Shown piece by piece: positions 34,932-57,642 of a stretch of 64,000 nt of DNA. How positions within the stretch are numbered: position 1 is the first letter of the stretch; every line of letters begins with the position of its first letter. Both the position numbers and the translations under genes were made by a program. The stretch lies in the NCBI GenBank assembly GCA_018175075.1, contig GCA_018175075.1_4100.1; one strand, 5' to 3'. This stretch comes from a phage. The notes below the pieces were generated by a model that was not told where the DNA came from, did no database searches, and saw only the letters and a program-made list of their open reading frames with translations.

Positions 34932-36098
34932 TTACGAAAAACGTGGATCATCAAGAACAAACACGGTACTACTTGGACCACCTTGTGTGGTGACAGCACT
35001 AGTACTGTAAAGAAAGTTACCATCTGTCATATAAGTTCTACGATTCGTACAAATAACTCTTACTTTATTCATATCGATATCAGGATTAGGTAATGGACAT
35101 GAAGTATACACTGATACATCAGTACTTGTTCCTATTCCCAGCGTACCTTCATTTGTGGTTGAACCGCTATTCAACCCACTAGCATATATACCACTGCTTG
35201 TAATAACAAAAGTGGCGTAGAATGGAGAACCTTCACCTATATTTAATTTAGTTCCAGGTGGTTGTCTTGCCGCAGCAACCGCACCATATGCTTTCCCACC
35301 AGATGTGGCAAGATTACCAAGAGCACCATACTGTTGTTGTCCACCATTATACACTGTGTTAGTGCCATCACTGTTAGTGTGGATACCAATAGAATTATAG
35401 TTACTGTTGCTATATACTAAAGCGGCATTAGAAGTAACTGTATTTCGTGTATATACTTTATATTGTTGGGTAAAATTACCACTAGTGGACGTACCCTGTA
35501 CAGTTCCAGTGTAGTATATATATCCGTCTGTACCAATGAATGAGTGCATAACACTACCTGCAAAAATTTTTTCTGGAGTAACACCTGACGGTATTGTTGA
35601 TTGTACAAATCTACCCACTACATTTGTTGTTGTATTATTTCCCAATTGACCGGAGTCACCATAACCACTTGACCATATGGTATTGTTCTCAAGAAGAACA
35701 CTAATTGATAATCTTGATAAAGCTATTTCTTTAACATCACTTTCTAATGTATCAAAAAATGAAGTACAATTTGTCCAAGTGTTCACTACGCTAGAACTAA
35801 CACCAATTTGTTTATTATCACCAGAACTATAATAATTCCCATCATATGTTTGTATAAGTATAACAGAACCACCAACCCATACTTTATCAACTGAACCAAA
35901 CGTTCTTGTCCATGTGGTAACTATATCCCCGCTATTATTACCCAATCCAAAGCAACCACTACTATCTACGCCTCGTACATATAAATCTCCTGAAGTCATC
36001 AGAACTGCACAGAATGATTGTGCACCTTTAACATCTTTAATTGGCTCTGGTTCAGGTGCAACATTTCCATAATCAAACATTCTAACAAAAGGTAACAT
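34932..36098 (-). CDS. RCC1-like beta-propeller repeat protein G12 (first gene of array)
   Basis: MLPFVRMFDYGNVAPEPEP; motif GQLGNN. Confidence 0.75.
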   Translation of the reverse strand: MLPFVRMFDYGNVAPEPEPIKDVKGAQSFCAVLMTSGDLYVRGVDSSGCFGLGNNSGDIVTTWTRTFGSVDKVWVGGSVILIQTYDGNYYSSGDNKQIGVSSSVVNTWTNCTSFFDTLESDVKEIALSRLSISVLLENNTIWSSGYGDSGQLGNNTTTNVVGRFVQSTIPSGVTPEKIFAGSVMHSFIGTDGYIYYTGTVQGTSTSGNFTQQYKVYTRNTVTSNAALVYSNSNYNSIGIHTNSDGTNTVYNGGQQQYGALGNLATSGGKAYGAVAAARQPPGTKLNIGEGSPFYATFVITSSGIYASGLNSGSTTNEGTLGIGTSTDVSVYTSCPLPNPDIDMNKVRVICTNRRTYMTDGNFLYSTSAVTTQGGPSSTVFVLDDPRFS

Positions 36099-36200
36099 AT
36101 TTCCTCCTTTATTCATTATATCATATTTACCCCATAAACAAAACCCTTGACAACCTTCCAGTACTGGTGTACTATAGAAGGAATATAAGGAGAACTACAC
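36099..36200. promoter_or_regulatory. divergent promoter region
   Basis: minus side TATAAT + AAAGGAGG for G12; plus side TTGACA 36147-36152 /17/ TACTAT 36170-36175 ahead of family S. Confidence 0.45.
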
Positions 36201-36428
36201 ATGACAAATACTCTTAAGTACTACATTAATACTCTAAATGAACTAGAGTACGCGAAGTTTCTCGCGGATAGTTCGTGGCTAATTGAGCTAAAAAATTATA
36301 ATAGTCCAGGATGCACCCTTATGATGAACAATGCAATTGATACCCTCATTGTGAGTATTTTACACAGCAACATCTGCGGGGATAGAAACAAACAATTATC
36401 AAAAATCTTAGTACTGCTATCTATATGA
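36201..36428 (+). CDS. small protein, tandem family S (S1)
   Basis: 75 aa, AAGGAG RBS. Confidence 0.5.
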   Translation: MTNTLKYYINTLNELEYAKFLADSSWLIELKNYNSPGCTLMMNNAIDTLIVSILHSNICGDRNKQLSKILVLLSI

Positions 36429-36628
36429 ATATCGAACAGTACTACATCGATGCACTACCAACAAAAGGTCTACGTGAAAGCCTACTGCATACACAAACTA
36501 ATTTCAAACACCTCAAACGTAGCCCTAAACTCCTGAACTCGTACAGGAATAATAACATAAGAAATGCTTTACAAGGGGTAGAATGTATGCAATACTATTA
36601 CATCCTTACCCTATTAATCGAGTACTAA
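36425..36628 (+). CDS. small protein, family S (S2)
   Basis: 67 aa; ATGA overlap. Confidence 0.5.
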   Translation: MNIEQYYIDALPTKGLRESLLHTQTNFKHLKRSPKLLNSYRNNNIRNALQGVECMQYYYILTLLIEY

Positions 36629-36629
36629 T

Positions 36630-36839
36630 ATGAATACTGAACATAAAGAATTCTACACCAAATACCTTAGCAACGAAGAACAATTGTTTCTAAGGAGTGT
36701 ATCACCTGTAAGTACCAATACTCAATTCGGTAGAGATTGCTTTAATAATTGTATACGTAGTACTCTAGAAGCAATCGAATGCAATAACAAAAATATTATG
36801 TACTCAGGTTTAATAGGACTAATATATTTCTATGAATAA
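36630..36839 (+). CDS. small protein, family S (S3)
   Basis: 69 aa; clear paralog of S18. Confidence 0.55.
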   Translation: MNTEHKEFYTKYLSNEEQLFLRSVSPVSTNTQFGRDCFNNCIRSTLEAIECNNKNIMYSGLIGLIYFYE

Positions 36840-37026
36840 TCATAAAGATTTCTATTGTAGTAAACTACCCAAACAAGAACAGCTATCATTCTCTTTAGCA
36901 CCACCTATGAGAAAGGATAATCTGTATTATAATTACGATTTCAGGATGGTGACACGTTATGCAATAGAACATCAGTTCCCTGAAACTAAGTACCGCTCTA
37001 TCCTGAACCTCATCTTTAAGTTCTAA
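36832..37026 (+). CDS. small protein, family S (S4)
   Basis: 64 aa; MNNHKDFY. Confidence 0.5.
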   Translation: MNNHKDFYCSKLPKQEQLSFSLAPPMRKDNLYYNYDFRMVTRYAIEHQFPETKYRSILNLIFKF

Positions 37027-37078
37027 AAGGTACACCAGGGACCGAGTACTTTAATATAGTAAGGCTAATTACATTATA

Positions 37079-37264
37079 ATGAATCATATAAGCTACTACT
37101 ACCAACAACTATCCGACAGAGACAAGTACAGTCACAACTCCCATGTGTGGTACTACAAACGCGGCAGTATAAGAGACAAACAACATTACTTCTGTATTTC
37201 TATTAAAGAAGCACTGACAACTAAGTACACGTACCGAGCAGTACTTAAACTTATTGAAATGTAA
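37079..37264 (+). CDS. small protein, family S (S5)
   Basis: 61 aa; C-terminal VLKLIEM. Confidence 0.5.
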   Translation: MNHISYYYQQLSDRDKYSHNSHVWYYKRGSIRDKQHYFCISIKEALTTKYTYRAVLKLIEM

Positions 37265-37274
37265 AGAGAATACT

Positions 37275-37457
37275 ATGAACATTGAATTGTACTTAAGTAA
37301 ATTACAGCCTGGCGATAGATTCATCTACAATAAGTTCGAATTCAACTACAAGAACGGGAGCAACAAATATCGTCGAGGATACCTATATACAAGCACAAGA
37401 GATGCACAAAACGAAAAGTACACATACAGAGAAGTACTTAAACTAATCTCTATTTGA
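37275..37457 (+). CDS. small protein, family S (S6)
   Basis: ATG 37275; C-terminal VLKLISI. Confidence 0.5.
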   Translation: MNIELYLSKLQPGDRFIYNKFEFNYKNGSNKYRRGYLYTSTRDAQNEKYTYREVLKLISI

Positions 37458-37465
37458 GGTAATAT

Positions 37466-37651
37466 ATGAATACATTTGAGTACTATACCAATAAACTATC
37501 TATGCCTGAAAGATCTCATCTCTATGTGTGGAGAAATGCGTATAAAAGCGGCAATAAACTTATACAAAGAAATTCCCTTACAGTGTGTACAAATTTAATT
37601 AAAGCAGAGTACCGCACATATATTGAAGTACTGAAACTAATCTCTATCTAA
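37466..37651 (+). CDS. small protein, family S (S7)
   Basis: 61 aa; VLKLISI. Confidence 0.5.
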   Translation: MNTFEYYTNKLSMPERSHLYVWRNAYKSGNKLIQRNSLTVCTNLIKAEYRTYIEVLKLISI

Positions 37652-37659
37652 GGTACTCT

Positions 37660-37839
37660 ATGCAAGAATTCTATATCTATAAACTTCAGCACAAAGATAG
37701 ATACAACTATAATAAATTCCAAAGGTACTACACAGTCGGGAACAAAAGAGATAAAAAACGATACTTTCTATCATGTACAGTAGAAGCACAAAACGAAAAG
37801 TACACGTACAGAGAAGTACTGAAACTCATCTCTATGTAA
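37660..37839 (+). CDS. small protein, family S (S8)
   Basis: 59-aa ORF below track cutoff; MQEFYIYKL..VLKLISM. Confidence 0.45.
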   Translation: MQEFYIYKLQHKDRYNYNKFQRYYTVGNKRDKKRYFLSCTVEAQNEKYTYREVLKLISM

Positions 37840-37847
37840 GGAATAAT

Positions 37848-38027
37848 ATGCAAGAATACTATATAGAACACATAAGCATTAAAGACCGTTTCATGTACGA
37901 CACCTTCGTGAAGTACTACAACCTGGCAACTAACAGTACTAAAAATATTAATCTCAATAGCTGCATTCATCACGCACTAACAAAAGATAATCCCTTCAGG
38001 GAAATCCTCGCACTAGCATCTGTATAA
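37848..38027 (+). CDS. small protein, family S (S9)
   Basis: ATG 37848 (MQEYYIEHIS); track start upstream overlaps S8. Confidence 0.5.
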   Translation: MQEYYIEHISIKDRFMYDTFVKYYNLATNSTKNINLNSCIHHALTKDNPFREILALASV

Positions 38028-38037
38028 AGGAAACCAA

Positions 38038-38697
38038 ATGAAACTTAATGCACACAGCAAACAATACCTTAAGCACTTTAAGTACCTCAACAGTATTCAA
38101 GCAGAATCTTTTACACCAGCATATACGTATCACCCAAATGTACTAAAGAAACGAAATAAAAAGAAAAAATCCAGAAATGTTCTCGTATCTAAGAACCTCA
38201 AATCGTACTTGAAGAAAAATAATATAGCTCTTGCTTTTATTAATATCTATAATACTGATTTAAAAGTATTGAGTACTAATACCAGCACAAAAGCACTAAA
38301 GAATGCATCTATCTATATACACATGGATAATATCCCGTGCACTATAATTCTATCTTTCGGGAATGTATACTTCTTCGGGAATTGTAATAGCACCCATGAT
38401 ATCAGTACTGCACAATTCCAAATCGGCGATATGTACTGCATGGGTTCAGAAAAAATACACGATAACATGCACTTCTTCCAAAAGCAACGTACTAACGAAA
38501 CTGATACAGTACTGCAATTCCTCAAAGAACTAGAACACAAAGAATTATCCGAGGAAGAAGAATTCATGTACAGTACTGTAATCGATAATCCAGAACTCTA
38601 TAAAAACGCGTACAAACTAACAAAACATGTACAGGAACTTATCAGTACTGATAAGAAATTTCATCACCTCATTACGTATATTTCAAACTATGTATAA
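38038..38697 (+). CDS. hypothetical protein inside family S array
   Basis: 219 aa, AAGGA RBS; Lys-rich N-terminal part. Confidence 0.55.
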   Translation: MKLNAHSKQYLKHFKYLNSIQAESFTPAYTYHPNVLKKRNKKKKSRNVLVSKNLKSYLKKNNIALAFINIYNTDLKVLSTNTSTKALKNASIYIHMDNIPCTIILSFGNVYFFGNCNSTHDISTAQFQIGDMYCMGSEKIHDNMHFFQKQRTNETDTVLQFLKELEHKELSEEEEFMYSTVIDNPELYKNAYKLTKHVQELISTDKKFHHLITYISNYV

Positions 38698-38872
38698 AGA
38701 ATACTACAAAGATAAAATCCCAATGCATCTACAACACCATATACCAAACGTTGCATTGGGTATCAAAGATCACGCAAAGATAATGTTCCAACAATGTACT
38801 AAGTACACGCTCATATACGATGATAATCCATATATGCTGTACTACGTAGTAATGCTAACATTCAGGTACTAA
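38690..38872 (+). CDS. small protein, family S (S11)
   Basis: MYKEYYKDKIPMHLQ; C-terminal LTFRY. Confidence 0.5.
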   Translation: MYKEYYKDKIPMHLQHHIPNVALGIKDHAKIMFQQCTKYTLIYDDNPYMLYYVVMLTFRY

Positions 38873-38873
38873 T

Positions 38874-39053
38874 ATGAATACTTATAAAGAATTCTACCTC
38901 TCGTACCTTAATTCCGATATAGTAACATCCAATACATTCAGTACTAAAATTATCTATAATGAATTAATGAAAGAATGTATTAAAGGTGCTATTAACCCTA
39001 AAGATACGTATGACTTGTACTATGCAGTACTAACCCTTGTTTTCACGAAATAA
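38874..39053 (+). CDS. small protein, family S (S12)
   Basis: 59-aa ORF below track cutoff; MNTYKEFYLSYL. Confidence 0.45.
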   Translation: MNTYKEFYLSYLNSDIVTSNTFSTKIIYNELMKECIKGAINPKDTYDLYYAVLTLVFTK

Positions 39054-39061
39054 CACATAAT

Positions 39062-39253
39062 ATGAATAACCACAAAGAATACTACATAGAGAAACTCCCA
39101 ATGTATCTCCAACACCTTGTACCAACAGAACCATTGGGTATAGAAAAAAACTACGAAAAAGACTACTTCATTCAGTGCACTAAATCCTCGATATATATTG
39201 AAGACTATAATCGAGTACTGTATCACATCCTTTTACTAATATATAGGTACTAA
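39062..39253 (+). CDS. small protein, family S (S13)
   Basis: MNNHKEYYIEKLPMYLQ..LLIYRY. Confidence 0.5.
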   Translation: MNNHKEYYIEKLPMYLQHLVPTEPLGIEKNYEKDYFIQCTKSSIYIEDYNRVLYHILLLIYRY

Positions 39254-39254
39254 T

Positions 39255-39437
39255 ATGCACAAAGAATACTACACACAATTTCTCCCCAGCATTTTTGAAC
39301 ACTACGCCAGATACAAAGTCCCTATGGATAACGATTTGGCAGTACTGGGATTCAATAACTGCATAGAACGAAGTATAGAAAATAGTAGTAGTTATGACCA
39401 GCTATATAACACTATCCTACTTATATTCAGGTACTAA
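39255..39437 (+). CDS. small protein, family S (S14)
   Basis: MHKEYYTQFLP..LLIFRY. Confidence 0.5.
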   Translation: MHKEYYTQFLPSIFEHYARYKVPMDNDLAVLGFNNCIERSIENSSSYDQLYNTILLIFRY

Positions 39438-39438
39438 T

Positions 39439-39627
39439 ATGCATAAAGAATACTACACAAAATATTTCCCAATGTACCTCAGTACTAATCTATTAGATAA
39501 ACCTCGCGGTATCAATGCACAAAACGATAAAGTGTATTTTACTATGTGTACTAAAGCATGTATACTAGATTTTGACAGCTACCATCGAGTACTGTATCAT
39601 ACCCTGTACCTAGCTTTCGTATTCTAA
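39439..39627 (+). CDS. small protein, family S (S15)
   Basis: ATG 39439 (MHKEYYTKYFPMYL) right after S14 stop. Confidence 0.5.
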   Translation: MHKEYYTKYFPMYLSTNLLDKPRGINAQNDKVYFTMCTKACILDFDSYHRVLYHTLYLAFVF

Positions 39628-39636
39628 AAGAACAAT

Positions 39637-39822
39637 ATGCATAAAGAATTCTACTTAAGCCATCTCGATCTAAACTCCCAAATGCTTATACCACTAATCC
39701 CAATAGATATCAAGGATAAGAAAAATACCGAACAATTCATTTACCATACACAGTGTGCGATCACCCCAAATTACATTCCATATGAATTGTACTACATTAT
39801 CGCCCTAATATATAGGTACTAA
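39637..39822 (+). CDS. small protein, family S (S16)
   Basis: MHKEFYLSHL..LIYRY. Confidence 0.5.
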   Translation: MHKEFYLSHLDLNSQMLIPLIPIDIKDKKNTEQFIYHTQCAITPNYIPYELYYIIALIYRY

Positions 39823-39823
39823 T

Positions 39824-40009
39824 ATGCATAGAGAATACTACACACAATTTGTTAAAGGGAACTACAAACATGCCGTACCCAGAACCCCTTTAAATTCTCA
39901 TGACCCAAGTACTATATTCTTGTTTAATGACGCAATACGTACAGTACTCAATACTAAAGATGAAGATGTGCAGTACGTATTCTTACTATTACTTATATAC
40001 AGACACTAA
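39824..40009 (+). CDS. small protein, family S (S17)
   Basis: MHREYYTQFV..LLIYRH. Confidence 0.5.
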   Translation: MHREYYTQFVKGNYKHAVPRTPLNSHDPSTIFLFNDAIRTVLNTKDEDVQYVFLLLLIYRH

Positions 40010-40224: not shown

Positions 40225-40408
40225 TTACAAAGACTTCTATTTGAATACACTACCTACTGTACTTTCTCTAAGTGCTCAATGTAAAATCCCGCTGGATAAT
40301 GCTTACGCCAGATATAGCTATTCCATAACTGTTAATCGATGTATAGAGAATCATTGCAGTACTAACACTAGTACTATCATATTAATTAATAGAGAATACT
40401 ATGTATAA
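40217..40408 (+). CDS. small protein, family S (S19)
   Basis: MNNYKDFYLNTLP. Confidence 0.5.
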   Translation: MNNYKDFYLNTLPTVLSLSAQCKIPLDNAYARYSYSITVNRCIENHCSTNTSTIILINREYYV

Positions 40409-40592
40409 AAACTTCTATATAAGTAAACTAAAAGAAAATGAACAAGTATGGATTAGATCTATAATTCCACTGGCATTTAATAGATATGCATTTAACAGAT
40501 GTACCGAGATTGCTATAGACCCTTATAATATTAAAGAGAATGTACAGTATAATCAGTACTACTATATCTTAATGCTTATATATAGAAAGTAA
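40401..40592 (+). CDS. small protein, family S (S20)
   Basis: MYKNFYISKL..LMLIYRK. Confidence 0.5.
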   Translation: MYKNFYISKLKENEQVWIRSIIPLAFNRYAFNRCTEIAIDPYNIKENVQYNQYYYILMLIYRK

Positions 40593-41003
40593 TTAAACAC
40601 ATAGAGACAGGGGAAGCTCCTAGTGAACAACCTTTATGTACAGGCGAATTGTTAAAATTCAGCCTGGACAAATGCGATCACTAGGATTCTCCCCAGGCTA
40701 AACCCCGTAATCATAGGTAGTCATAAGTAATCATATATAAACATTTATATGAGCACCGTAGAATCACAGAATGATTATATATGATTCAGTACTGATTAGT
40801 ATAGACAAGATTGCTCAAGAATGCACGGAAATGTGTGTGAATGATTCAGTACTGATATCCCACTAAGTAGGCAGAGGAAGTCTGCCGTACTTTGTAGTTT
40901 CCAAGCTCCTTTTCCATTTTGCAAATTACATCAAATGTAATCAAAAGTAATCACACAATGATTAGTACTGAATTATTACTTTCACCTTAATTACAATTAC
41001 CCT

Positions 41004-41023
41004 TTTACCCTTCGGGGTAAAAT
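41004..41023 (+). other. perfect 8-bp hairpin with UUCG tetraloop in noncoding island
   Basis: TTTTACCC-TTCG-GGGTAAAA. Confidence 0.4.
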
Positions 41024-41230
41024 TCCATTACCCCTTGAGGCTCCAGCAAAAAGTTGGTTAGTACTCCATCCTAAATCTCGATCCTAAAAATTTTGGAGTA
41101 CCTATGAAATAAAAGTTGGATCTTCGAAAGTTGAAATTTACGTTGGGACGTTTATGATTTGTGGGATATAATGATGTTTGTAGTCGGGTAGTTCTCAAGA
41201 ATATCAGTACTGAATGATGAAAGAAAGCTA

Positions 41231-41385
41231 TTGACTTTATGATTCAGTACTGTATAATGTTTTACATAGAGAGATGAGTTGCCGCAAACAATTCATTCAC
41301 TCTACTTCCTGTCGTGAGACAGTACAGAAAGATAGTTCCTCCTATGGGTGGTACATCTTTTAGAACCTCTTTTTTCGTAATATGA
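41231..41385 (+). ncRNA. candidate small transcript: promoter TTGACT/16/TATAAT, no ORF of 60 aa or more, T-run at 41371-41376
   Basis: TTGACT 41231-41236, TATAAT 41253-41258; only a 29-codon ORF downstream. Confidence 0.25.
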
Positions 41386-41441
41386 ACAGTACTGATATTA
41401 ACAGAATGGTGTCAGTACTGATTTTAATTTAATGCATTATG

Positions 41442-41461
41442 CCACCAGCACAAGCTGGTGG
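41442..41461. repeat. inverted Chi-octamer hairpin
   Basis: CCACCAGC-ACAA-GCTGGTGG. Confidence 0.5.
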
Positions 41462-41587
41462 ATTCCCTCTAACAGTATTCAGTACTACATGATGGTCTTC
41501 ATCCTCCTAGGGTAACATAGTGAGGGCTATGATGGCAGTACTGAATACTCCCTTTCAAAAGATAGATCTATGGTATAGTACTGACGG

Positions 41588-41775
41588 ATTTTGGGCGTAG
41601 TTACCCTGGATGGATTTTGGGCGTAGATATGTCTAGCCCTCCAGAAGTCTGGAAGTAAAGATGGCTATCCATCTAGACGGCTAAACGGCTAGATTTCTGG
41701 ATGGCTGGATGGCTAGACGTTTGGACGGCTAAACGGCTAGATGGTTACACGTCTGGAAGTATAGACGGCTAAATC
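41588..41775. repeat. iteron-like direct repeats
   Basis: ATTTTGGGCGTAG x2; GACGGCTAAACGGCTAGAT x2 (41676-41694, 41724-41742); GTCTGGAAGTA x2; reiterated GGCTA/GATGG units. Confidence 0.5.
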
Positions 41776-41994
41776 AAAATTTTATTTTGTTTTTTCCAAT
41801 AGTTCCCCTACCGCGTGGGGATAGTTTCCCCGCAGTATCTGGTGTTAGATTTTTCTGAATCTGGAATCATTATCTTATAAACTGGGGGCAATGTCAACGG
41901 CCTGGACGGATATTTTTAAAAATTTTTTCAGTACTGAATTTTGGGCGTAACTATGCACCCGGTGGGCTGGAGTCTTTCTCGACTTGATGGAACT

Positions 41995-42022
41995 ATTATA
42001 CAGTACTGGAAAAATAAAGCAA
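41995..42022 (-). promoter_or_regulatory. minus-strand promoter TTGCTT/16/TATAAT
   Basis: read as reverse complement. Confidence 0.35.
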
Positions 42023-42209
42023 TACCCTGGATGAAAAAAGTTTTAATTAATTTGCTTGCCATCCTGGGCCGGACTATGGTACTATAATTCAGTACTGAGA
42101 AAGTGCGTTAACCTGCTAGGGTGCGGGAGTGTATCCTTTTTTTATATCTTGAATTTTGGGCGTAATTCCGCACCCTCTGGGGTTTCCGCTTTCTCGCGTC
42201 TATGTAGTA

Positions 42210-42237
42210 ATTATACGCTTTTTCAGGATCAAGTCAA
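42210..42237 (-). promoter_or_regulatory. minus-strand promoter TTGACT/16/TATAAT
   Basis: read as reverse complement. Confidence 0.35.
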
Positions 42238-42390
42238 TACCTAAAAACAAATAATTGAAAATAATTTAACGCGTTTAAACGGCCCGTAACGCCCTGGAAT
42301 GATTAGAATGGTGCAAATGTATAGCTTAGGTGTATTAATGCGTTAGAATGCGTCTGAGGCCGTTTTATGGGGTGTAGTAGTGATTTGGTT

Positions 42391-42480
42391 GATTCAGTAC
42401 TGAATAATAGTACTCCTATATAGAAAGATAGTTCCCCTGGATTGATTCAGTACTGAATAATAGTACTCCTATATAGAAAG
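42391..42480. repeat. tandem direct repeat, 37-bp unit at 53-bp period
   Basis: GATTCAGTACTGAATAATAGTACTCCTATATAGAAAG at 42391-42427 and 42444-42480. Confidence 0.6.
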
Positions 42481-42512
42481 AAAACTATTTTAAAAGTACA
42501 TGTAGAAAGTAC

Positions 42513-42571
42513 TTGCACCGTACTGATAAAAGCGTATAATGTTTTACATCGAGAGCGGGAACACTTCCCGC
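42513..42571 (+). promoter_or_regulatory. A-type promoter/stem-loop cassette
   Basis: TTGCAC/16/TATAAT + GCGGGAA-CAC-TTCCCGC. Confidence 0.55.
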
Positions 42572-42586
42572 TACACTTTAAAAGAG

Positions 42587-42958
42587 ATGAAAACGATGGC
42601 GACTCAAATCAATAAAATCATGCTTAACCTGGTAAACTTCCGCGATGAGATGAAAGGTCTTCCGGCTGAAACTGTAAAAATTCACATTGCAGCTTATCGG
42701 GAACTTATTGCAATGTTGCCGCTTAAGCGTGAACAATACGCCGCTACTTTGATGCTGGATTCAATGATCCATGTAATGATCTCAAATGATTTAACGATGG
42801 TTTATCAGTACATGGGAGAAAATTTCGCGGTGTGTAGTAAGCCAGTACCAGGGATGGCAACTACTGAGGAATTGCACGGTTTAAATTTAAAGCAAGATGC
42901 ATGGGATAATATGCCTCGTTTCCTGGTATGGGCTGACAGTGGCAAAATTTACAAATAA
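42587..42958 (+). CDS. hypothetical protein
   Basis: ATG 42587 after the stem-loop; track start 42539 is the ATG inside the -10 box. Confidence 0.55.
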   Translation: MKTMATQINKIMLNLVNFRDEMKGLPAETVKIHIAAYRELIAMLPLKREQYAATLMLDSMIHVMISNDLTMVYQYMGENFAVCSKPVPGMATTEELHGLNLKQDAWDNMPRFLVWADSGKIYK

Positions 42959-42972
42959 GTTTAATAAAGTAC

Positions 42973-43031
42973 TTGCAAACTATGTTTAATGGCGTATAAT
43001 GTTTTACATCAGGTGGGGAATAGTTCCCCAC
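42973..43031 (+). promoter_or_regulatory. A-type promoter/stem-loop cassette
   Basis: TTGCAA/16/TATAAT + GGGGAA-TAG-TTCCCC. Confidence 0.55.
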
Positions 43032-43051
43032 TATATAAGAGGATTAAAAAA

Positions 43052-43291
43052 ATGGCTAAATCAAAAATGTTCTTAGGTCACAAAAACAAAACTCATTGGA
43101 ATGTAAGCCTGTGGATTAATAACGATGAGGGATTGTATCGGTTGGCCCTGGATTTTATTAACGACAACACTAATCGCAATGATGCGGCCCGTCATATGAT
43201 GTTATTTTTAGAACAGACTGGACAAGATAAAACACCGGACGGATTCAAATATAGCACTACTGCGATCCGTGCGGCGATGGTTGGAATGTAA
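43052..43291 (+). CDS. hypothetical protein (paralog of 45092 gene)
   Basis: AAGAGGA RBS; shared ..GHKNKTHWNVSLWINN..TPDGFKYSTTAIRAAMVGM. Confidence 0.6.
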   Translation: MAKSKMFLGHKNKTHWNVSLWINNDEGLYRLALDFINDNTNRNDAARHMMLFLEQTGQDKTPDGFKYSTTAIRAAMVGM

Positions 43292-43381
43292 TAGAATAGA
43301 ATTTATTTAAAGTACTATCGCAAAAAATGATAGTACTTTATAATAGTGTTTTATTCATACACCAACGATAAGGGCAACAGC

Positions 43382-43645
43382 ATGAATATTAAGTATTTTG
43401 CGACGCGTGAACAAGCTCGGATCGCTGCACGCCAGGACGGGGCAACGTTTAAAGATATGGGCGTACAATCGGAACGTGGTAAACGTTGGGCCATTGTAAA
43501 GCGTAGTACCGCCAGATCATTACAGTACTGGTTAGCGGCCTTAAAAAGTCCCGATAGTGTATCGCGTCGAGTGGTAGAAATAAAGCTCGACCGAAAGGGC
43601 AACCGCGTGACCGTGTACCGTACTAAAAAGATTGCAGTACTATAA
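43382..43645 (+). CDS. hypothetical protein (paralog of 56658 gene)
   Basis: AAGGG RBS; shared KYFATREQARIAAR..DRKGNRVTVY. Confidence 0.55.
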   Translation: MNIKYFATREQARIAARQDGATFKDMGVQSERGKRWAIVKRSTARSLQYWLAALKSPDSVSRRVVEIKLDRKGNRVTVYRTKKIAVL

Positions 43646-43653
43646 AAAAGTAC

Positions 43654-43711
43654 TTGCAAACTCTGTTTAATGGCGTATAATGTTTTACATCGAGAGCGGG
43701 AACACTTCCCG
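43654..43711 (+). promoter_or_regulatory. A-type promoter/stem-loop cassette
   Basis: TTGCAA/16/TATAAT + GCGGGAACACTTCCCGC. Confidence 0.55.
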
Positions 43712-43733
43712 CCTATAACCTGGAGTAATAAAA

Positions 43734-43964
43734 ATGACTAATATGTATATGACTGAAGTTAAAACCGTAAAAGATACTACCACAAATAAAGTTACTTACT
43801 TACAGCGGATCTGTGGTGTATGGCAACGTATCAGCAAATCAAAGTACTATAAATTAACATCATATGCAAACCGTTCTGATTCATTCAGTACTGAAATAAA
43901 AGGTAATAAAGTACACCAATACGGCACTTATTATTATTACAGCCTGGACGCGATTGCAGTATAA
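43734..43964 (+). CDS. hypothetical protein
   Basis: 76 aa, GGAG RBS. Confidence 0.55.
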   Translation: MTNMYMTEVKTVKDTTTNKVTYLQRICGVWQRISKSKYYKLTSYANRSDSFSTEIKGNKVHQYGTYYYYSLDAIAV

Positions 43965-43994
43965 GCAGTTTACAAATCTTTACAATTGCCGGTA

Positions 43995-44023
43995 TTGACT
44001 TATTTTGTCAGTACTGGCATAAT
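43995..44023 (+). promoter_or_regulatory. sigma70-like promoter TTGACT/17/CATAAT with no ORF downstream
   Basis: faces minus promoter 44139-44167 across an inverted-repeat element. Confidence 0.4.
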
Positions 44024-44039
44024 GTATTCATTGGCAGAT

Positions 44040-44135
44040 AAGCCGTAGCCCATAGGGTGCGGGAGTGTATCTATAGAAAAATTAGTTTAGTATAGTTACA
44101 ATTGTGCACCCGGTGGGTTAGCTGTTGTCATGGGG
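44040..44135. repeat. GGGTGC inverted-repeat element
   Basis: CCCATAGGGTGC .. GCACCCGGTGGG arms about 50 nt apart; related copies at ~41950, 42110-42180, 46520, 51365, 53020, 55365, 58625, 60890. Confidence 0.5.
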
Positions 44136-44138
44136 TAT

Positions 44139-44167
44139 ATTATGCCAGTACTGGATAGTGCTGTCAA
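44139..44167 (-). promoter_or_regulatory. minus-strand promoter TTGACA/17/CATAAT
   Basis: read as reverse complement; convergent with 43995 promoter. Confidence 0.4.
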
Positions 44168-44211
44168 TACTTTTTTAATATTCAGTACTGAAAACTATTT
44201 TTAAAAAGTAC

Positions 44212-44357
44212 TTGCAAACTATGTTTAAAGGCGTATAATGTTTTACATCAGGACGGGGAACGAAATAAGTAACTTCCCGTTAAGTAGCCCAGGAGTAAGG
44301 CACACGAAAAACTCCCCTGATAAAATAGTTTGACAATTGTTTTTAAAAGCGTATAAT
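44212..44357 (+). promoter_or_regulatory. tandem promoters flanking a conserved leader (copy 1)
   Basis: TTGCAA 44212/TATAAT 44234; leader hairpin; second TTGACA 44330/TATAAT 44352; homologous block at 55428-55571. Confidence 0.5.
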
Positions 44358-44389
44358 ACTTACATCAACTACTGAATGAGGGTTACAAA

Positions 44390-45001
44390 ATGAAAACTAT
44401 CACTACTACTACTTTCGTTATGGATTTTTCTGAATTGAACGCAGAACAAAAAACGTCAGCTATCGAACTGGTTCGGGAACGTGAAAAAAACTCAAACGAC
44501 AATTATTTTTCTGAAAGTGAAATTGAATACTATAAAGAAACAGTACTACCGGAATATGGCATTAATGACGCTGAAATACAATTCAGTGGCTTTTGGTCCC
44601 AGGGTGACGGTGCATCAATCAGTACTGACCACGTTGACGCAGTGAAGTTTTTACGCAAGGTAAGAGCATTAACTAAGTATCGCTCAATCCGTCACCTGCT
44701 GAATGAAGATGATTTGGCGATGAGTGTAAAGCGTTCGCACTCCCACTACTCGCATGAGAATACTGTAAGCGGGTACATTGAATCGGCTTACACTGATTTA
44801 ACCGCAAAACAAGAAACGTTAGTTAATGAGCTTGAGGAACTACTCACTGAAACTATTCGTGAATTGTCCCGCAAGTTGTACCGTGATTTAGAGAATGCAT
44901 ATGAGGATCAATTCACCACTGAAAACATTACGGCACTGATTGAGGGTAACGAATATCAATTCAATGTTATTGATGGCGTAGTAGAATCAATCGAATATTA
45001 A
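44390..45001 (+). CDS. hypothetical acidic protein
   Basis: 203 aa, GAGGG RBS. Confidence 0.65.
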   Translation: MKTITTTTFVMDFSELNAEQKTSAIELVREREKNSNDNYFSESEIEYYKETVLPEYGINDAEIQFSGFWSQGDGASISTDHVDAVKFLRKVRALTKYRSIRHLLNEDDLAMSVKRSHSHYSHENTVSGYIESAYTDLTAKQETLVNELEELLTETIRELSRKLYRDLENAYEDQFTTENITALIEGNEYQFNVIDGVVESIEY

Positions 45002-45013
45002 TTTAAAAAGTAC

Positions 45014-45073
45014 TTGCAAACTAAGTTTAAAAGCGTATAATACTTTATATCGAGGCGGGGAATGGTTCCCCGC
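45014..45073 (+). promoter_or_regulatory. A-type promoter/stem-loop cassette
   Basis: TTGCAA/16/TATAAT + GCGGGGAA-TGG-TTCCCCGC. Confidence 0.55.
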
Positions 45074-45091
45074 TCAAACGAGGATTTAAAA

Positions 45092-45331
45092 ATGGCTAGT
45101 ACTAAAACTTACAACGGTCACAAAAACAAAACTCATTGGAATGTAAGCCTTTGGATTAATAACGGTGAGTCATTGTATCGGCTTGCTCAAAGTTGCATCG
45201 CACAAAGTAGAACTAAAGATATTGCTGCGGAATGTATGTACCGCAGATTAAAAGCCAACGGTACTACTACAACGCCGGACGGCTTTAAGTATAGCACTAC
45301 TGCGATCCGTGCTGCAATGGTTGGAATGTAA
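45092..45331 (+). CDS. hypothetical protein (paralog of 43052 gene)
   Basis: 79 aa, GAGGA RBS. Confidence 0.6.
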   Translation: MASTKTYNGHKNKTHWNVSLWINNGESLYRLAQSCIAQSRTKDIAAECMYRRLKANGTTTTPDGFKYSTTAIRAAMVGM

Positions 45332-45350
45332 TATTCAGTACTGAGATAAT

Positions 45351-45370
45351 GGCGGGGAATGGTTCCCGCC
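45351..45370 (+). promoter_or_regulatory. isolated cassette-type stem-loop
   Basis: GGCGGGGAA-TGG-TTCCCGCC with no clear -35. Confidence 0.35.
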
Positions 45371-45388
45371 TTTACTGAGGGTTATCTA

Positions 45389-45676
45389 ATGAGTAAAGTA
45401 ATAAAGTACAATGTGTTAAGTAAATCATTGTCTATCAGTGAATGCACCGATGGTTTTTGGATGTACGATGAAACGCGTGGCATGAATTTAGCTATGCGTG
45501 CAAAAACTGCTGAGGCGGCGTATATTCAAGCACTGGAATACTACCAGGAACGTTTAAAGGAAGTAGAAGAAGATTATAAAAGCCTCAAAGCGAAAGTAGA
45601 TCATTTCGTCGGTCAATTCGTGGAAGACAACGACGAGGACGGGCACTACTGCGACCGTTGCGGATCTTACAGTTAA
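45389..45676 (+). CDS. hypothetical protein
   Basis: ATG 45389 with GAGGG RBS; C-terminal CDRC. Confidence 0.5.
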   Translation: MSKVIKYNVLSKSLSISECTDGFWMYDETRGMNLAMRAKTAEAAYIQALEYYQERLKEVEEDYKSLKAKVDHFVGQFVEDNDEDGHYCDRCGSYS

Positions 45677-45693
45677 GTACTAAGGATTATATA

Positions 45694-45906
45694 ATGAGTG
45701 ATTTAATTGAACGTATCAAAGAGCTTGAAGAAAAAGAATTGCAGTTGATCGGGTTACGGAATAAAGTATTCCATGATTTAGGTGGCTTTATTAATGCCTG
45801 GGATAGTGGCGATCCTGATGCGTTACCTGCTAACCGCCAGGCGATGATCAATGATGTGCGTGGTGTCTTTGAGTATGTTTTAAAAGTACTAGACACTAAG
45901 CAATAA
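45694..45906 (+). CDS. hypothetical protein
   Basis: ATG 45694 with AAGGA RBS. Confidence 0.5.
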   Translation: MSDLIERIKELEEKELQLIGLRNKVFHDLGGFINAWDSGDPDALPANRQAMINDVRGVFEYVLKVLDTKQ

Positions 45907-45967
45907 AGGCGTATAATACTTTATATTGGTACTGACAAACATTATAAGCGATTCAGGAGCTTTAATC

Positions 45968-46153
45968 ATGACAACATTATCTGAGGTTATCCGCGTTCAA
46001 GCTGCAAAGGCTGGAATGACTGTTATCAATGTAGGGATCAAGATTGAGATCTCCCCTAACGAGTTGCAAGGGATTCCCGATCCTACTAGCTGGGATCGTG
46101 CTGGGCGAATGATGCGTAATGCTTCATTACTGGACGGTACAAAATTTAATTAA
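45968..46153 (+). CDS. hypothetical protein
   Basis: 61 aa; CAGGAG RBS. Confidence 0.45.
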   Translation: MTTLSEVIRVQAAKAGMTVINVGIKIEISPNELQGIPDPTSWDRAGRMMRNASLLDGTKFN

Positions 46154-46160
46154 AAAGTAC

Positions 46161-46219
46161 TTGCAATTAGTTTTTAGTACTGTATAATGGTTTACATCAA
46201 AGGGAGAAATGGTTCTCCC
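46161..46219 (+). promoter_or_regulatory. A-type promoter/stem-loop cassette
   Basis: TTGCAA/16/TATAAT + GGGAGAAATGGTTCTCCC. Confidence 0.55.
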
Positions 46220-46238
46220 TGGTAATGAGGAAAATAAA

Positions 46239-46460
46239 ATGGCTAATATCACTACTCTTTCCCAACTGGAAGCACTGGTTAAATCTATGCGGGAACATGC
46301 CGACAAAATCGGCGTACAAGATCCAGCCGTTTGCTTCTGCGACGAAATGAATGATGATACACTGGTAATAGCAGAAGTCCAGGACGTTTCTAACTATTCC
46401 TCGCGTTACACTGGCGGCGTAGCAAATAAAGGTGACTTCTGTTTATACCTTACAAAATAA
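46239..46460 (+). CDS. hypothetical protein
   Basis: 73 aa, GAGGA RBS. Confidence 0.55.
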   Translation: MANITTLSQLEALVKSMREHADKIGVQDPAVCFCDEMNDDTLVIAEVQDVSNYSSRYTGGVANKGDFCLYLTK

Positions 46461-46465
46461 CAACG

Positions 46466-46496
46466 CGGGGAGATAATAACTCCCCGTTACTTTTTC
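46466..46496. terminator. intrinsic terminator hairpin, T-rich on both sides
   Basis: CGGGGAGATAATAACTCCCCG then TTACTTTTTC. Confidence 0.55.
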
Positions 46497-46566
46497 AGTA
46501 CTGAATCATTTAATAGACGGATCTCGGCACCCGGTGGGTTAGTGACTGTTTCGTCTTGATGTAGTA

Positions 46567-46595
46567 ATTATGCCAGTACTGGATGCACTTGTCAA
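46567..46595 (-). promoter_or_regulatory. minus-strand promoter TTGACA/17/CATAAT
   Basis: read as reverse complement; would give a ~90-nt antisense RNA ending at hairpin 46466-46486. Confidence 0.35.
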
Positions 46596-46628
46596 CAACT
46601 ATTTTTCAAATACTTTTTATTAAAATAC

Positions 46629-46682
46629 TTGCAATTAGTTTTTAAACGCGTATAATGTTTTGCATAGGGGGAGCGGTTCCCC
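46629..46682 (+). promoter_or_regulatory. A-type promoter/stem-loop cassette
   Basis: TTGCAA/16/TATAAT + GGGGGAGCGGTTCCCC. Confidence 0.5.
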
Positions 46683-46703
46683 TGGTAACTAAGGAATAAT
46701 AAA

Positions 46704-46940
46704 ATGCTTGAACAAATCAAATCAACGTCTGCGAATGTAACGGGAACGGTAGCACACTTTACTAGTGATGAATCGCGGGGCGTTCCCTATTGTGCTGTAC
46801 ATGTAAACACTGAGGGTAACTACTGGTTTACGGTTTACGGATCATATTCATTTGGACGGCCTGGACATCAAAAAATTCTGGATAAAGTACAGCCAACGGG
46901 TAAAAATATCACTGCTGAAATGTTTTATAAAAAATCATAA
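46704..46940 (+). CDS. hypothetical protein
   Basis: 78 aa, AAGGA RBS. Confidence 0.55.
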   Translation: MLEQIKSTSANVTGTVAHFTSDESRGVPYCAVHVNTEGNYWFTVYGSYSFGRPGHQKILDKVQPTGKNITAEMFYKKS

Positions 46941-46945
46941 AGTAC

Positions 46946-47005
46946 TTGATAATAGTTTTTAGTACTGTATAATATTTTACATCGCAAGGGGGGAGCGGTT
47001 CCCCC
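46946..47005 (+). promoter_or_regulatory. A-type promoter/stem-loop cassette
   Basis: TTGATA/16/TATAAT + GGGGGGAGCGGTTCCCCC. Confidence 0.5.
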
Positions 47006-47025
47006 TGGTAACTAAGGATAATCAA

Positions 47026-47325
47026 ATGAAAATTGCAATCATCGCCCTGGCTTTATCTGTTTCCTCTTTCGCTGTTAATGCGTCGTTAGATGTAAGTAGT
47101 GAAAAATTCATTCAGTGCACTGTAGCGATGACCAATGAAAGTACTGGCGAGATTGTTTTAAAGGATTTAGAGATCCAGCCAGAAGCATTTAAAAACGGGC
47201 CGTTCCATGAAGAAGACGAAAAAGGTAGCACGACAATTTATTACGATGCAAGTACTAAACGCGGTTCGGTCACTGTTATGGATACTGAGAAAGTAACGCA
47301 TTCCGGCGTTATTAATTGCCGTTGA
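47026..47325 (+). CDS. secreted protein (signal peptide)
   Basis: MKIAIIALALSVSSFAVNASLD; AAGGA RBS. Confidence 0.6.
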   Translation: MKIAIIALALSVSSFAVNASLDVSSEKFIQCTVAMTNESTGEIVLKDLEIQPEAFKNGPFHEEDEKGSTTIYYDASTKRGSVTVMDTEKVTHSGVINCR

Positions 47326-47346
47326 TAGATACTACGGGGTAACATC

Positions 47347-47577
47347 ATGACTAAGCGAATTGTTTTACTTAACGAAAGCAGTACTACACAACTACTTAAC
47401 GCCGTGCATTATGATATTGAAACGAGCGTTAATCTTATCAGTACTGTAGTACTGTTGGACACTGGAAAGGTCGCCAATGATAAAGCGATTGCAGGTATAT
47501 TAACGGATCTTGAGCCTGGTAGCAGTGCACCAATAACGTTAAATGGTAAAGTGTTTAATATTTTACTCACTGATTAA
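47347..47577 (+). CDS. hypothetical protein
   Basis: 76 aa, GGGG RBS. Confidence 0.5.
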   Translation: MTKRIVLLNESSTTQLLNAVHYDIETSVNLISTVVLLDTGKVANDKAIAGILTDLEPGSSAPITLNGKVFNILLTD

Positions 47578-47583
47578 GTACAT

Positions 47584-47607
47584 AGCCCACCTGGTGGGCT
47601 TTTTTGT
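47584..47607 (+). terminator. intrinsic terminator
   Basis: AGCCCACC-T-GGTGGGCT + T6. Confidence 0.7.
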
Positions 47608-47659
47608 TTTTGTAGTATCGTAGTACTGAGATACTTTGAAAATAGTTTTAAAAAAATAG

Positions 47660-47687
47660 TTGACATTACCGCAAAAAGGCGTAGAAT
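47660..47687 (+). promoter_or_regulatory. sigma70-like promoter TTGACA/16/TAGAAT with ~120-nt leader
   Basis: hexamers read directly. Confidence 0.45.
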
Positions 47688-47810
47688 ATATTACATCAAG
47701 ACGGGGAGCACTAAGTAGACCGCCAGTAAGTCGAACGAAAAACTGGACACGTCGAGAAAACTTTGATACACTAATAAACGTAAACTAAACTTTAATTGAG
47801 GATTTATAAA

Positions 47811-48293
47811 ATGGCTAATGTAAAATCATTCATCAAAGCACTGGTAGCAAATGAAACTAACGTCGCGGCTGAGATCCTGGCTGAACTGGATAACGATACC
47901 ATGAAAGCGGTACGCAATAATTTTAACATCGCTTACAGTACTGCGAAAGAACTACAAGCAAATAAAGCGGCAGAAATTGAAGCGGCAAAGGCGGCCCGTG
48001 AAGCAGAACTACAAGCAACAATTGAAAGTATTCAGGCGGCAGTAGTTGGATTGGATCTGGAAGTAGTTACAGAGATGGCACAAAAAGCCCTGGCGAAAAA
48101 GTACGGTGAAGATAAGCCAGAAGTAAAAGCTAAAAAATGGATTCAAGAACGTGTAGCGGTAGTACTTGATAACGGGGAAGAATATCTGATTCCGGTGCGT
48201 GGTAACTGCATTGCGGTAGTACTGGATGCGATTAACTCCAGTGGTATGACTCGCGAGGAATGGATCGAAGCTCATCGCAAAGTTGAAGCATAA
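47811..48293 (+). CDS. hypothetical Ala/Glu-rich helical protein
   Basis: ATG 47811 with GAGGA RBS; 160 aa. Confidence 0.6.
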   Translation: MANVKSFIKALVANETNVAAEILAELDNDTMKAVRNNFNIAYSTAKELQANKAAEIEAAKAAREAELQATIESIQAAVVGLDLEVVTEMAQKALAKKYGEDKPEVKAKKWIQERVAVVLDNGEEYLIPVRGNCIAVVLDAINSSGMTREEWIEAHRKVEA

Positions 48294-48314
48294 CAATTAA
48301 AGTACTGAATCATT

Positions 48315-48341
48315 AGCCCACTTATACAGTGGGCTTTTTTG
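48315..48341 (+). terminator. intrinsic terminator
   Basis: AGCCCAC-TTATACA-GTGGGCT + T6. Confidence 0.7.
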
Positions 48342-48494
48342 TGTTTATCGTTTACCAGGCCACCAGCACCGCCTAGAAACGATTCTAACGTATTAAACTG
48401 TTTATCTGATGCATTGCCCTAGCTGGTGGCGTTAAAGTCGTTAGAATGCGATTGAGTGCGTTTAAAGTATTTTGCAAAAAGTAATAAAAAGTAC

Positions 48495-48555: not shown

Positions 48556-48577
48556 CCAAATCAAAGGAATCAAAACA

Positions 48578-48805: not shown

Positions 48806-48813
48806 AAAAGTAC

Positions 48814-48874: not shown

Positions 48875-48891
48875 ACTACAAGGAAACTAAA

Positions 48892-57641: not shown

Positions 57642-57642
57642 T

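Follow-up and report, generated by a model that had tools for sequence, protein, structure and literature searches.

What are the short direct repeats for that crowd into some 190 bp (positions 41588 to 41775) of the phage contig GCA_018175075.1_4100.1 (NCBI GenBank assembly GCA_018175075.1)? We analyzed one strand of a 64,000-nucleotide (nt) stretch of this DNA, referred to here as the window, in which a preliminary description had listed these repeats separately and taken them for iteron-like repeats at a possible origin or packaging site. The listed repeats are all present, and each proved to be a facet of a single array with an 8-bp period that had gone unnoticed. The units of this array match the met box, the operator unit of the methionine repressor MetJ of the host. 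The explanation that we favor, and to which as a whole we give about an even chance, is that the segment is a super-sized met-box array, predicted from its sequence to be a docking platform for MetJ loaded with S-adenosylmethionine (SAM) that would form a roadblock just inside the end of the phage genome.

The array occupies positions 41627 to 41770, where 18 units of 8 bp follow one another head to tail in one register and without spacers, filling 144 bp (where no strand is given for a feature, none was assigned). The units are, in order, ATATGTCT, AGCCCTCC, AGAAGTCT, GGAAGTAA, AGATGGCT, ATCCATCT, AGACGGCT, AAACGGCT, and AGATTTCT in the first half and GGATGGCT, GGATGGCT, AGACGTTT, GGACGGCT, AAACGGCT, AGATGGTT, ACACGTCT, GGAAGTAT, and AGACGGCT in the second. 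Tandem Repeats Finder called periods of 8, 16, 24, 32, and 48, and the array spacings reported by the repeat finder were 8, 8, 8, and 16. The 19-mer GACGGCTAAACGGCTAGAT, correctly reported at 41676 to 41694 and 41724 to 41742, amounts to two and a half units that recur 48 bp, or six units, farther on; a search for it elsewhere, as had been proposed, returned no further copy at three or fewer mismatches (0 expected). The sequence GTCTGGAAGTA also occurs twice (41647 to 41657 and 41751 to 41761), with the coordinate first given for its first copy off by one. The two plus-strand copies of ATTTTGGGCGTAG (41588 to 41600 and 41614 to 41626), the only ones in the window, form a sequence repeat that adjoins the left edge of the array (41588 to 41626) and are spaced 26 nt from start to start. 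The reported short palindromes exist in the form of interrupted inverted repeats (CCAGA-ag-TCTGG at 41641 to 41652 and GATGG-ctat-CCATC at 41660 to 41673), and the GC content is indeed locally raised (0.486 in the array, 0.38 to 0.40 in the flanks, and 0.36 in the window). Two parts of the original proposal hold, in that the array is very probably a protein-binding array and stands 762 bp from an end relevant to packaging, but its anatomy is not that of iterons, which are repeats of ~17 to 22 bp in helical phase, whereas the unit here is 8 bp instead of ~20 bp at helical phasing.

The met box is the tandemly repeated 8-bp operator unit of MetJ, with the optimum AGACGTCT (PMC3413123). Each box binds one MetJ dimer, and repression needs at least two adjacent boxes (PMC3228920); SAM is the corepressor, and the dimers of neighboring boxes together encircle the DNA as a wheel (PMC2775130). 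According to the literature, runs of adjacent boxes are filled cooperatively because each SAM-loaded dimer contacts its neighbors. We scored the window with the met-box matrix and the thresholds of Augustus and Spicer (2011; PMC3228920), which call a box at ≥3.145 bits and a site at ≥12.58 bits. Sixteen of the 18 units pass the box threshold with a sum of 120.0 bits (120.4 bits for all 18), and a core of 14 contiguous met-box-like units (41659 to 41770; 102.8 bits) is the only qualifying MetJ site in the 64-kb window. The same script gave four boxes and 31.2 bits for the Escherichia coli metJ/B operator and four boxes and 24.9 bits for that of metF, the run in the array being three to four times the length of these two operators, with a mean of 7.5 bits per box against 7.8 and 6.2 bits in the real operators. 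The maximum reached in 200 second-order Markov simulations of the window was three boxes and 20.9 bits, and the remaining seven registers of the array score from −93 to −437 bits with zero passing boxes. The score of AGACGGCT is reached by only 0.018% of all 8-mers and, for a random 8-bp repeat unit taken in its best register, in 0.135% of trials.

Base preferences follow the same pattern. The in-register units resemble the met box (AGACGGCT, AAACGGCT, GGATGGCT, AGACGTTT, and ACACGTCT), and among 146 units from 15 phages the percentages at the eight positions are A69/G30, G77/A13, A87/C12, C55/T32, G80, T55/G42, C71, and T90, compared with A76/G16, G67/A19, A87/C10, C69/T26, G69, T87/G10, C67, and T76 in natural met boxes. 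First- and second-choice bases agree, with position 6 as the sole systematic departure, and flipped units (ATCCNTCT) are tolerated in the arrays. The likeness to MetJ operators thus comprises uninterrupted head-to-tail 8-bp units, per-box scores and base preferences that fit the published matrix, tolerance of flipped units, and hosts that carry MetJ. The phage array differs in having 16 to 18 boxes (9 to 34 in other phages) rather than the four of each scored operator, in lying within the terminal repeat of a virulent phage ~92 nt past a promoter that serves no gene rather than at a methionine or SAM gene, and in its frequent G at position 6. From this match and from the distribution of the arrays, we infer that MetJ is, on balance, the likely binder and that MetJ-SAM would coat the array in the infected cell.

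The window belongs to a jumbo phage of the genus Asteriusvirus (PBECO4/121Q-like) and is 93 to 97% identical to PBECO4, 121Q, G17, and fEgEco12; its closest relatives infect E. coli or Salmonella. Every Asteriusvirus examined carries the array, with 16, 18, 19, or 24 units, so that copy numbers differ by whole units and the register is kept; the one exception to the register is a 1-nt shift in an unverified record. At the same place, Mimasvirus (GAP32, CBB, and XbC2) and Eneladusvirus (pEa_SNUABM_12) have arrays whose units have diverged yet are still box-like. Whole-unit differences among close relatives would also be expected of a functionless minisatellite generated by neutral slippage, and monotonous 8-bp microsatellites are common in bacterial genomes. 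We nevertheless regard this origin as very improbable: the units are heterogeneous, with about 14 distinct ones among the 18 where microsatellites show one to three, and the array keeps its place, register, and box pattern in three genera despite a nucleotide identity of only about 23 to 24% between fEgEco12 and the two listed Eneladusvirus phages (PMC13070987).

Similar arrays occur well outside the jumbo phages. The T7-like coliphage PGT2 has nine boxes at nt 38 to 109 of its 260-bp terminal repeat, left of the first annotated gene, and T5-like phages of Vibrio, Aeromonas, and Providencia carry heterogeneous arrays. The array of PR1, a T5-like phage of Providencia, is found at 9,615 to 9,691 in a 10,461-bp repeat (8.1% of the genome), a position equivalent to that of the T5 injection-stop (iss) region. 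Pseudoalteromonas phage PH1 has roughly 40 units; a search of the open reading frames (ORFs) that flank them found no family. By box scoring, the largest array comprises 34 met-box-like units (272 bits) at 4513 to 4784 of IMGVR_UViG_3300033696_000004, a T5-like-sized contig of 119.9 kb, and the matches of the loose pattern (RRAHGKYT)x5 in IMG/VR included heterogeneous arrays, mostly in contigs of 106 to 133 kb, which is again the size of T5-like genomes. A synthetic array of canonical met boxes, compared by blastn with 50,697 phage records, matched 36 of them, with Erwinia, Vibrio, Aeromonas, Providencia, Yersinia, Pseudoalteromonas, Serratia, Pectobacterium, Escherichia, Salmonella, and, in one case, Xanthomonas as hosts. 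MetJ is confined to the Enterobacterales, Pasteurellales, Vibrionales, Aeromonadales, and Alteromonadales (PMC3228920), and all but one of the 36 matches come from hosts of these five orders; queries derived from the phage arrays gave the same host picture. PA5oct, a jumbo relative infecting Pseudomonas, a genus outside the MetJ orders, has no met-box run or period-8 array in 45 kb that include its whole 39-kb terminal repeat. The left terminal repeat of T5 has no met-box array either, showing that the array is not a general feature of the T5 family. Among the Autographiviridae, the searches of phage records found it in PGT2 and phiKT alone, and nothing similar was found in 72,556 plasmids and 5,426 complete E. 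coli genomes. Its presence in three unrelated lineages (jumbo myovirus, T5-like, and T7-like) and not in T5 or PA5oct argues against a phage-specific terminase or initiator site, and this occurrence across unrelated virion and packaging lineages but not in T5 suggests that the factor involved is supplied by the host and is not peculiar to a phage.

A separate attempt at a host-range test, in which the loose pattern (RRAHGKYT)x5 was run over bacterial genomes, was uninformative, as it returned >120 monotonous 8-bp microsatellites from many phyla. Bacterial microsatellites of this period (e.g., GAATGGCT ×16 and AGATGTTT ×24) are perfect or nearly so, are common in Bacteroidota and other phyla, and are unrelated to the phage arrays.

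Where, then, does the array stand in the genome? It lies within a 1.9-kb leader (40593 to 42538) that has no ORF of 60 amino acids (aa) or more on the plus strand, the strand that carries the genes, and that is flanked on both sides by runs of small plus-strand genes; those nearest to the array encode small hypothetical proteins (DUF7249 and others). The records of several relatives start 135 to 145 nt upstream of position 41000, and one relative's record annotates a direct terminal repeat of 21,525 bp from nt 1. A PhageTerm analysis of fEgEco12, which restriction digests confirmed, gave the genome ends and a terminal repeat of 20,993 bp (PMC13070987). Mapped onto the window, the fEgEco12 ends delimit a direct terminal repeat of 21.4 kb (40866 to 62319), whose left edge is the physical left end of the genome (40866 to 40897, plus strand, starting AGTAGGCAGAGGAAGTCTGCC). 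The array is located 762 to 905 bp inside this end, as mapped in the near-identical fEgEco12, and given that it lies inside the direct terminal repeat, it is present in both repeat copies. In every case with known termini, the array falls within the terminal repeat, less than 1 kb from one of its edges (762 bp in the window, 709 bp in CBB, 38 bp in PGT2, and 770 bp in PR1). Inspection of the two repeat edges by eye (40866 on the left and 62319 on the right) revealed no common motif. The GC skew changes sign at ~40.4 to 41.0 kb, at the genome end, which is also the repeat boundary, and is negative from 36 to 40.6 kb despite plus-strand ORFs, unlike in other plus-strand regions (the skew was noted over about 40400 to 41000 and 22000 to 40000).

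The position near a genome end also suits a site for a phage-encoded protein, which could be a terminase small subunit at a pac-like site, a replication initiator at iterons, or a ribbon-helix-helix protein acting as a centromere-binding or partition adaptor. Ribbon-helix-helix partition proteins do bind short tandem repeats, and the distance of 762 bp to the mapped end, the A/T-rich stretch alongside the array, and the change of skew sign would all fit. So would the perfect DnaA boxes that adjoin the arrays of two T5-like phages, PR1 and Vibrio phage Pontus, an arrangement that Davison, for T5, likens to oriC (10.1101/866236). The leader of the window, however, has no DnaA box with up to one mismatch (40.6 to 42.5 kb), and the count for the whole window is at chance (28 versus 26 expected). 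The ten flanking ORFs match only domains of unknown function in Pfam, with no initiator, partition, or recognizable DNA-binding family among them, and the search of the 72,556 plasmids is likewise at odds with a partition or initiator site. A terminase site would be expected near the packaging cut, as the array is, but also to be lineage specific and kept with the packaging machinery, whereas one type of array is found across three lineages unrelated in packaging and replication, is missing from T5 and PA5oct, and within the Autographiviridae is restricted to the two phages named above. Since, in addition, a known host protein would account for the length and pattern of the unit, we consider binding by a phage-encoded protein unlikely. 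An origin or packaging role could still be mediated by a roadblock of host protein.

Transcription appears to be directed at the array from both sides. On the minus strand, a strong leftward sigma-70-type promoter (TTGACA-17-GATAAT; 41897 to 41869, with a predicted start near 41862) fires toward the genome end and into the array ~92 nt downstream, and it is followed, like other early promoters of the phage, by a hairpin (GGGGAAACTATCCCC; GGGGA...TCCCC). Downstream of this promoter, the minus strand has no ORF; the small ORFs that we looked at were not convincing. Leftward promoter-like sites of differing sequence lie 95 to 125 nt from the array edge in all three genera when judged by eye, while the scan called the Asteriusvirus one only. 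On the plus strand, the promoter scan found a strong rightward sigma-70 promoter (TTGACT-16-TATAAT; 41231 to 41258), whose transcript meets hairpins at 41387 to 41420 and 41442 to 41461 before it reaches the array. With one promoter aimed at it from either side, the array thus lies between convergent promoters. PR1 shows the same topology, with transcription running toward the physical end, then the array, and then the end; in PGT2, the topology would be the same only on the condition, suggested by the T7-like genome layout, that late transcription proceeds rightward into the right-hand copy of the repeat.

A promoter that reads into the array could alternatively serve a noncoding RNA, made from the leftward promoter or from a plus-strand promoter marked by AATTTTGGGCGTA, in which the 8-nt units or an imperfect hairpin of some length would serve to soak up protein, to provide a replication primer or R-loop, or to regulate as antisense. 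In favor of such a role, a conserved promoter stands 92 nt away from the array and leads into no ORF, the fold z-scores are low (plus strand, −4.5; minus strand, −3.0), and the A/T-rich stretch between promoter and array resembles the origins of T4, oriF and oriG, in which a promoter is combined with an unwinding element. On the other hand, near-palindromic tandem units give a low fold energy automatically, a strict 8-nt phase has no obvious meaning in RNA structure, and the tolerance of flipped units (ATCCNTCT) is what one expects of a symmetric DNA-binding dimer. There is no Rfam match or tRNA in the window, and the PGT2 array (nt 38 to 109), placed before the first annotated gene, would not be expected to be transcribed. 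Taken together, this makes an RNA role quite improbable. A sponge for CsrA was rejected upon inspection, as there are about five GGA motifs, most units are without GGA, and strict 8-nt phasing is not CsrA-like.

Under the MetJ explanation, the 16 to 18 adjacent boxes would in infected E. coli recruit ~16 MetJ dimers onto 144 bp of noncoding DNA, and the coated segment would, in a SAM-dependent way, act as a roadblock or landmark that sets the genome end apart from the DNA farther in. Such a roadblock would halt transcription from the leftward early promoter (41897 to 41869) before it proceeds to or across the end or the concatemer junction. We advance this function of the coated array, as a roadblock or landmark close to the end, more tentatively than MetJ binding itself, and the idea may well be wrong.

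The same predicted binding would also underlie a sink, in which the arrays (two per genome and, upon replication, thousands of boxes) titrate MetJ and derepress metE, metF, metK, and other genes, so that the methionine and SAM supply of the host feeds phage protein synthesis and SAM-dependent methylation. The duplication of the array in the terminal repeat, in DNA near the genome end, and its 16 to 34 boxes, far beyond what a regulatory operator needs, would suit this purpose. A sink, though, would need no particular place, yet the arrays are consistently less than 1 kb from an edge of the terminal repeat and past a promoter that points at them. T7-like phages shut down transcription of the host. 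Early degradation of host DNA is known for T5 (A1 annotation; Davison preprint, 10.1101/866236), and if the T5-like and T7-like carriers likewise degrade host DNA or shut off host transcription, derepression gains them little. Given the constrained position and these two features of T5 and T7-like phages, a sink is less attractive than a roadblock, and we regard it as rather unlikely.

Several observations weigh against MetJ as the binder or against the roadblock. The identification of MetJ rests on a weight matrix and on the distribution of the arrays. Position 6 is G in 42% of the phage units versus 10% of natural boxes, which removes one of the two symmetric half-site matches, and single boxes may therefore be weak. 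No methionine or SAM gene has the array at its promoter, whereas a typical operator lies within ~75 bp of a start codon, and the array has three to four times the length of the two scored operators. The carrier XbC2 has Xanthomonas, a genus outside the five MetJ orders, as its listed host. Arrays of different families have the 20-mer AGACGTTTAGACGGCTAAAT in common, suggesting that they are probably homologous or transferred; this leaves fewer independent host-range events, and the host pattern could partly reflect the range of gene exchange. Since the loose pattern (RRAHGKYT)x5 matches microsatellites, periodicity alone is not specific for MetJ. The fold scores and the promoter reading into the array would also suit a role at the RNA level. 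Finally, RecBCD displaces bound proteins, which weakens the version of the roadblock in which the array protects the end.

The stretch between the physical end and the array holds Chi sites. A perfect hairpin at 41442 to 41461 (CCACCAGC-acaa-GCTGGTGG), 576 bp from the end, presents Chi in both orientations, and its copy at 41442, 170 bp outside the array, is correctly oriented for entry from the left end. The window and PR1 have the same order of elements, namely, end, correctly oriented Chi, opposite Chi, ~170 bp, and array; in the PR1 stretch (1731 to 2682), these are the repeat edge or end at 1731, the correct Chi at 2161, the opposite Chi at 2320, and the array at 2501 to 2577, followed by two perfect DnaA boxes (2660 to 2682). 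In XbC2, a correctly oriented Chi at nt 216 precedes the array at 648. The array and the correctly oriented Chi 170 bp outside it could form an end-management module. As a tentative generalization, which we hold to be possible rather than likely, those virulent phages of MetJ-bearing gammaproteobacteria whose genomes have direct terminal repeats would share a transferable module just inside the end, consisting of a met-box super-array, a correctly oriented Chi, and, in some lineages, DnaA boxes, and recruiting a MetJ-SAM sheath beside the end. If this is true, transcription, resection, or concatemer processing at the end would hinge on a metabolic repressor of the host and on the SAM level of the cell, and the module would represent a previously unrecognized use by phages of a host transcription factor as a structural, metabolite-gated roadblock on DNA.

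Among known systems, the T5 iss region (Davison, 10.1101/866236) is comparable in being noncoding, dense in repeats, close to the edge of a long terminal repeat, and proposed to bind host protein, and the array of PR1 lies at the iss-equivalent position beside two perfect DnaA boxes, that of Pontus beside three. T5, however, has no met-box array, and in the window, there are no DnaA boxes near the array or elsewhere in the leader, and the array is at the left, outer repeat edge rather than the right one, while a T5-type injection-stop region is a cluster of DnaA boxes and inverted repeats at the inner edge; DnaA boxes accompany the array only in PR1 and Pontus. Davison's analysis of the T5 injection stop discusses DnaA boxes and not MetJ (10.1101/866236). 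In the Pontus stretch, three DnaA boxes (TGTGGATAA; 1833 to 1900) directly precede the array, and about eight GGTGCAAAT(T/C)CGA-like repeats follow it (2140 to 2560). A second comparison is offered by the T7 concatemer junction, where arrays of short repeats flank the terminal repeat and an RNA polymerase pause site is needed for packaging. It shares with the window reiterated short sequences just inside the end and, on the roadblock reading, an element that stops polymerase between incoming transcription and the end, but the T7 unit is ~7 bp at irregular spacing, the pause site acts on T7 RNA polymerase without a host repressor, and there is no sequence similarity. Iterons and ribbon-helix-helix centromeres (ParR/parC and the omega heptads) are likewise tandem short repeats bound cooperatively, and the centromeres are bound by a ribbon-helix-helix dimer, which is the fold of MetJ; the phage array differs from them in that no cognate initiator or partition genes lie near it, none of the 72,556 plasmids has a similar one, and its unit fits a host repressor.

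MetJ is a textbook repressor that, to our knowledge, has been described only at the short operators of methionine genes, and our literature search turned up no relevant work that connects MetJ or met boxes with phages, jumbo phages, or terminal repeats. By its sequence, the array would be a MetJ-type operator array in a new place and on a new scale, and it probably has a new purpose. SAM is already central to restriction, to bacteriophage exclusion (BREX), and to phage enzymes that degrade SAM. If phage terminal repeats do contain 9 to 34 MetJ boxes, SAM and a metabolic regulator of the host would be put to some use at phage DNA ends as well. This would provide a handle on the repeat-dense noncoding ends of T5-like, T7-like, and jumbo phages, including, in array carriers, the long-unexplained injection-stop region of the T5 type, and the arrays would be ready-made MetJ binding platforms of very high capacity for synthetic biology. 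The Chi-rich, orientation-biased terminal repeat would be a second testable end-management feature of these phages.

Chi (GCTGGTGG) occurs 15 times in the window, compared with 0.66 expected and a maximum of 4 in 100 shuffles, and 11 of these sites fall within the 21.4-kb terminal repeat (spanning 41442 to 60956). The seven sites between 52681 and 60949 are all oriented for RecBCD entering from the right genome end, and minus/plus pairs are located at 41442/41454 (the perfect hairpin) and 48360/48422; the genome ends look armored with Chi. Three Chi sites, ~255 nt apart (29285 to 29805), all lie inside an ORF of 245 aa.

Other conserved elements border the array. Exact copies of TTTTGGGCGTA number four in the 64 kb, all within 41589 to 42164 (41589, 41615, 41939, and 42154), of which two adjoin the array; in the relatives from Mimasvirus and Eneladusvirus, a single copy of AATTTTGGGYGTA is likewise found ahead of the array. 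The other two TTTTGGGCGTA copies precede a conserved CACCC...GGG...CTTTCTCG segment shared with XbC2 and pEa_SNUABM_12. At the right edge, an A/T-rich stretch (AAATCAAAATTTTATTTTGTTTTTT; 41771 to 41795) is present in the examined Asteriusvirus relatives except EJP2, and it is followed by a conserved element (TTTTCCAATAGTTCCCCTACCGCG; 41792 to 41815) that corresponds to TTTTCCATTAGYTCCCCTTCCGCG in Mimasvirus and Eneladusvirus. On the leftward transcript just upstream of the array (41803 to 41797, minus strand), the Mimasvirus and Eneladusvirus relatives have a conserved Shine-Dalgarno-like sequence (AAGGGGAGCTAATGGAA) that opens a mini-ORF (MEF*, MEK*, or, in pEa_SNUABM_12, 14 codons), while the window has AGGGGAACTATTGGAA and no clean ATG.

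The GGGGA...TCCCC hairpin occurs within a few tens of nucleotides after the promoters at 15725, 53988, 54897, and 59020 and at 41834 to 41820 on the minus strand, and it may be a 5′ stem-loop on early transcripts. To the right of the array, at 42056 to 42145, a terminator (stem at 42118 to 42137 plus a T run) lies no more than ~50 nt beyond a promoter (TTGCCA-18-TACTAT, preceded by a TG), which suggests a very short transcript; XbC2 repeats this promoter and layout. The palindrome CAGTACTG occurs 66 times in the window (1.2 expected), with 12 copies between 40787 and 42455. It fills the spacer before the −10 element in many strong promoters (TTGACA-N8-CAGTACTG-TATAAT), but many copies are intragenic; AGTACT is associated with promoters in the Mimasvirus and Eneladusvirus relatives too (AAAAAGTACTTGCA). 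The palindrome could be a site for a phage regulator or a promoter element.

Farther from the array, the minus strand carries ten tandem ORFs of 369 to 411 aa between 23148 and 36116, interspersed with ORFs of 269 aa (27163 to 27972) and 245 aa (29227 to 29964, the one with the three Chi sites), and this run looks like an array of paralogous genes. Within the first 5 kb of the terminal repeat, two small paralogous genes (42989 to 43291 and 45062 to 45331) match Pfam DUF7249.

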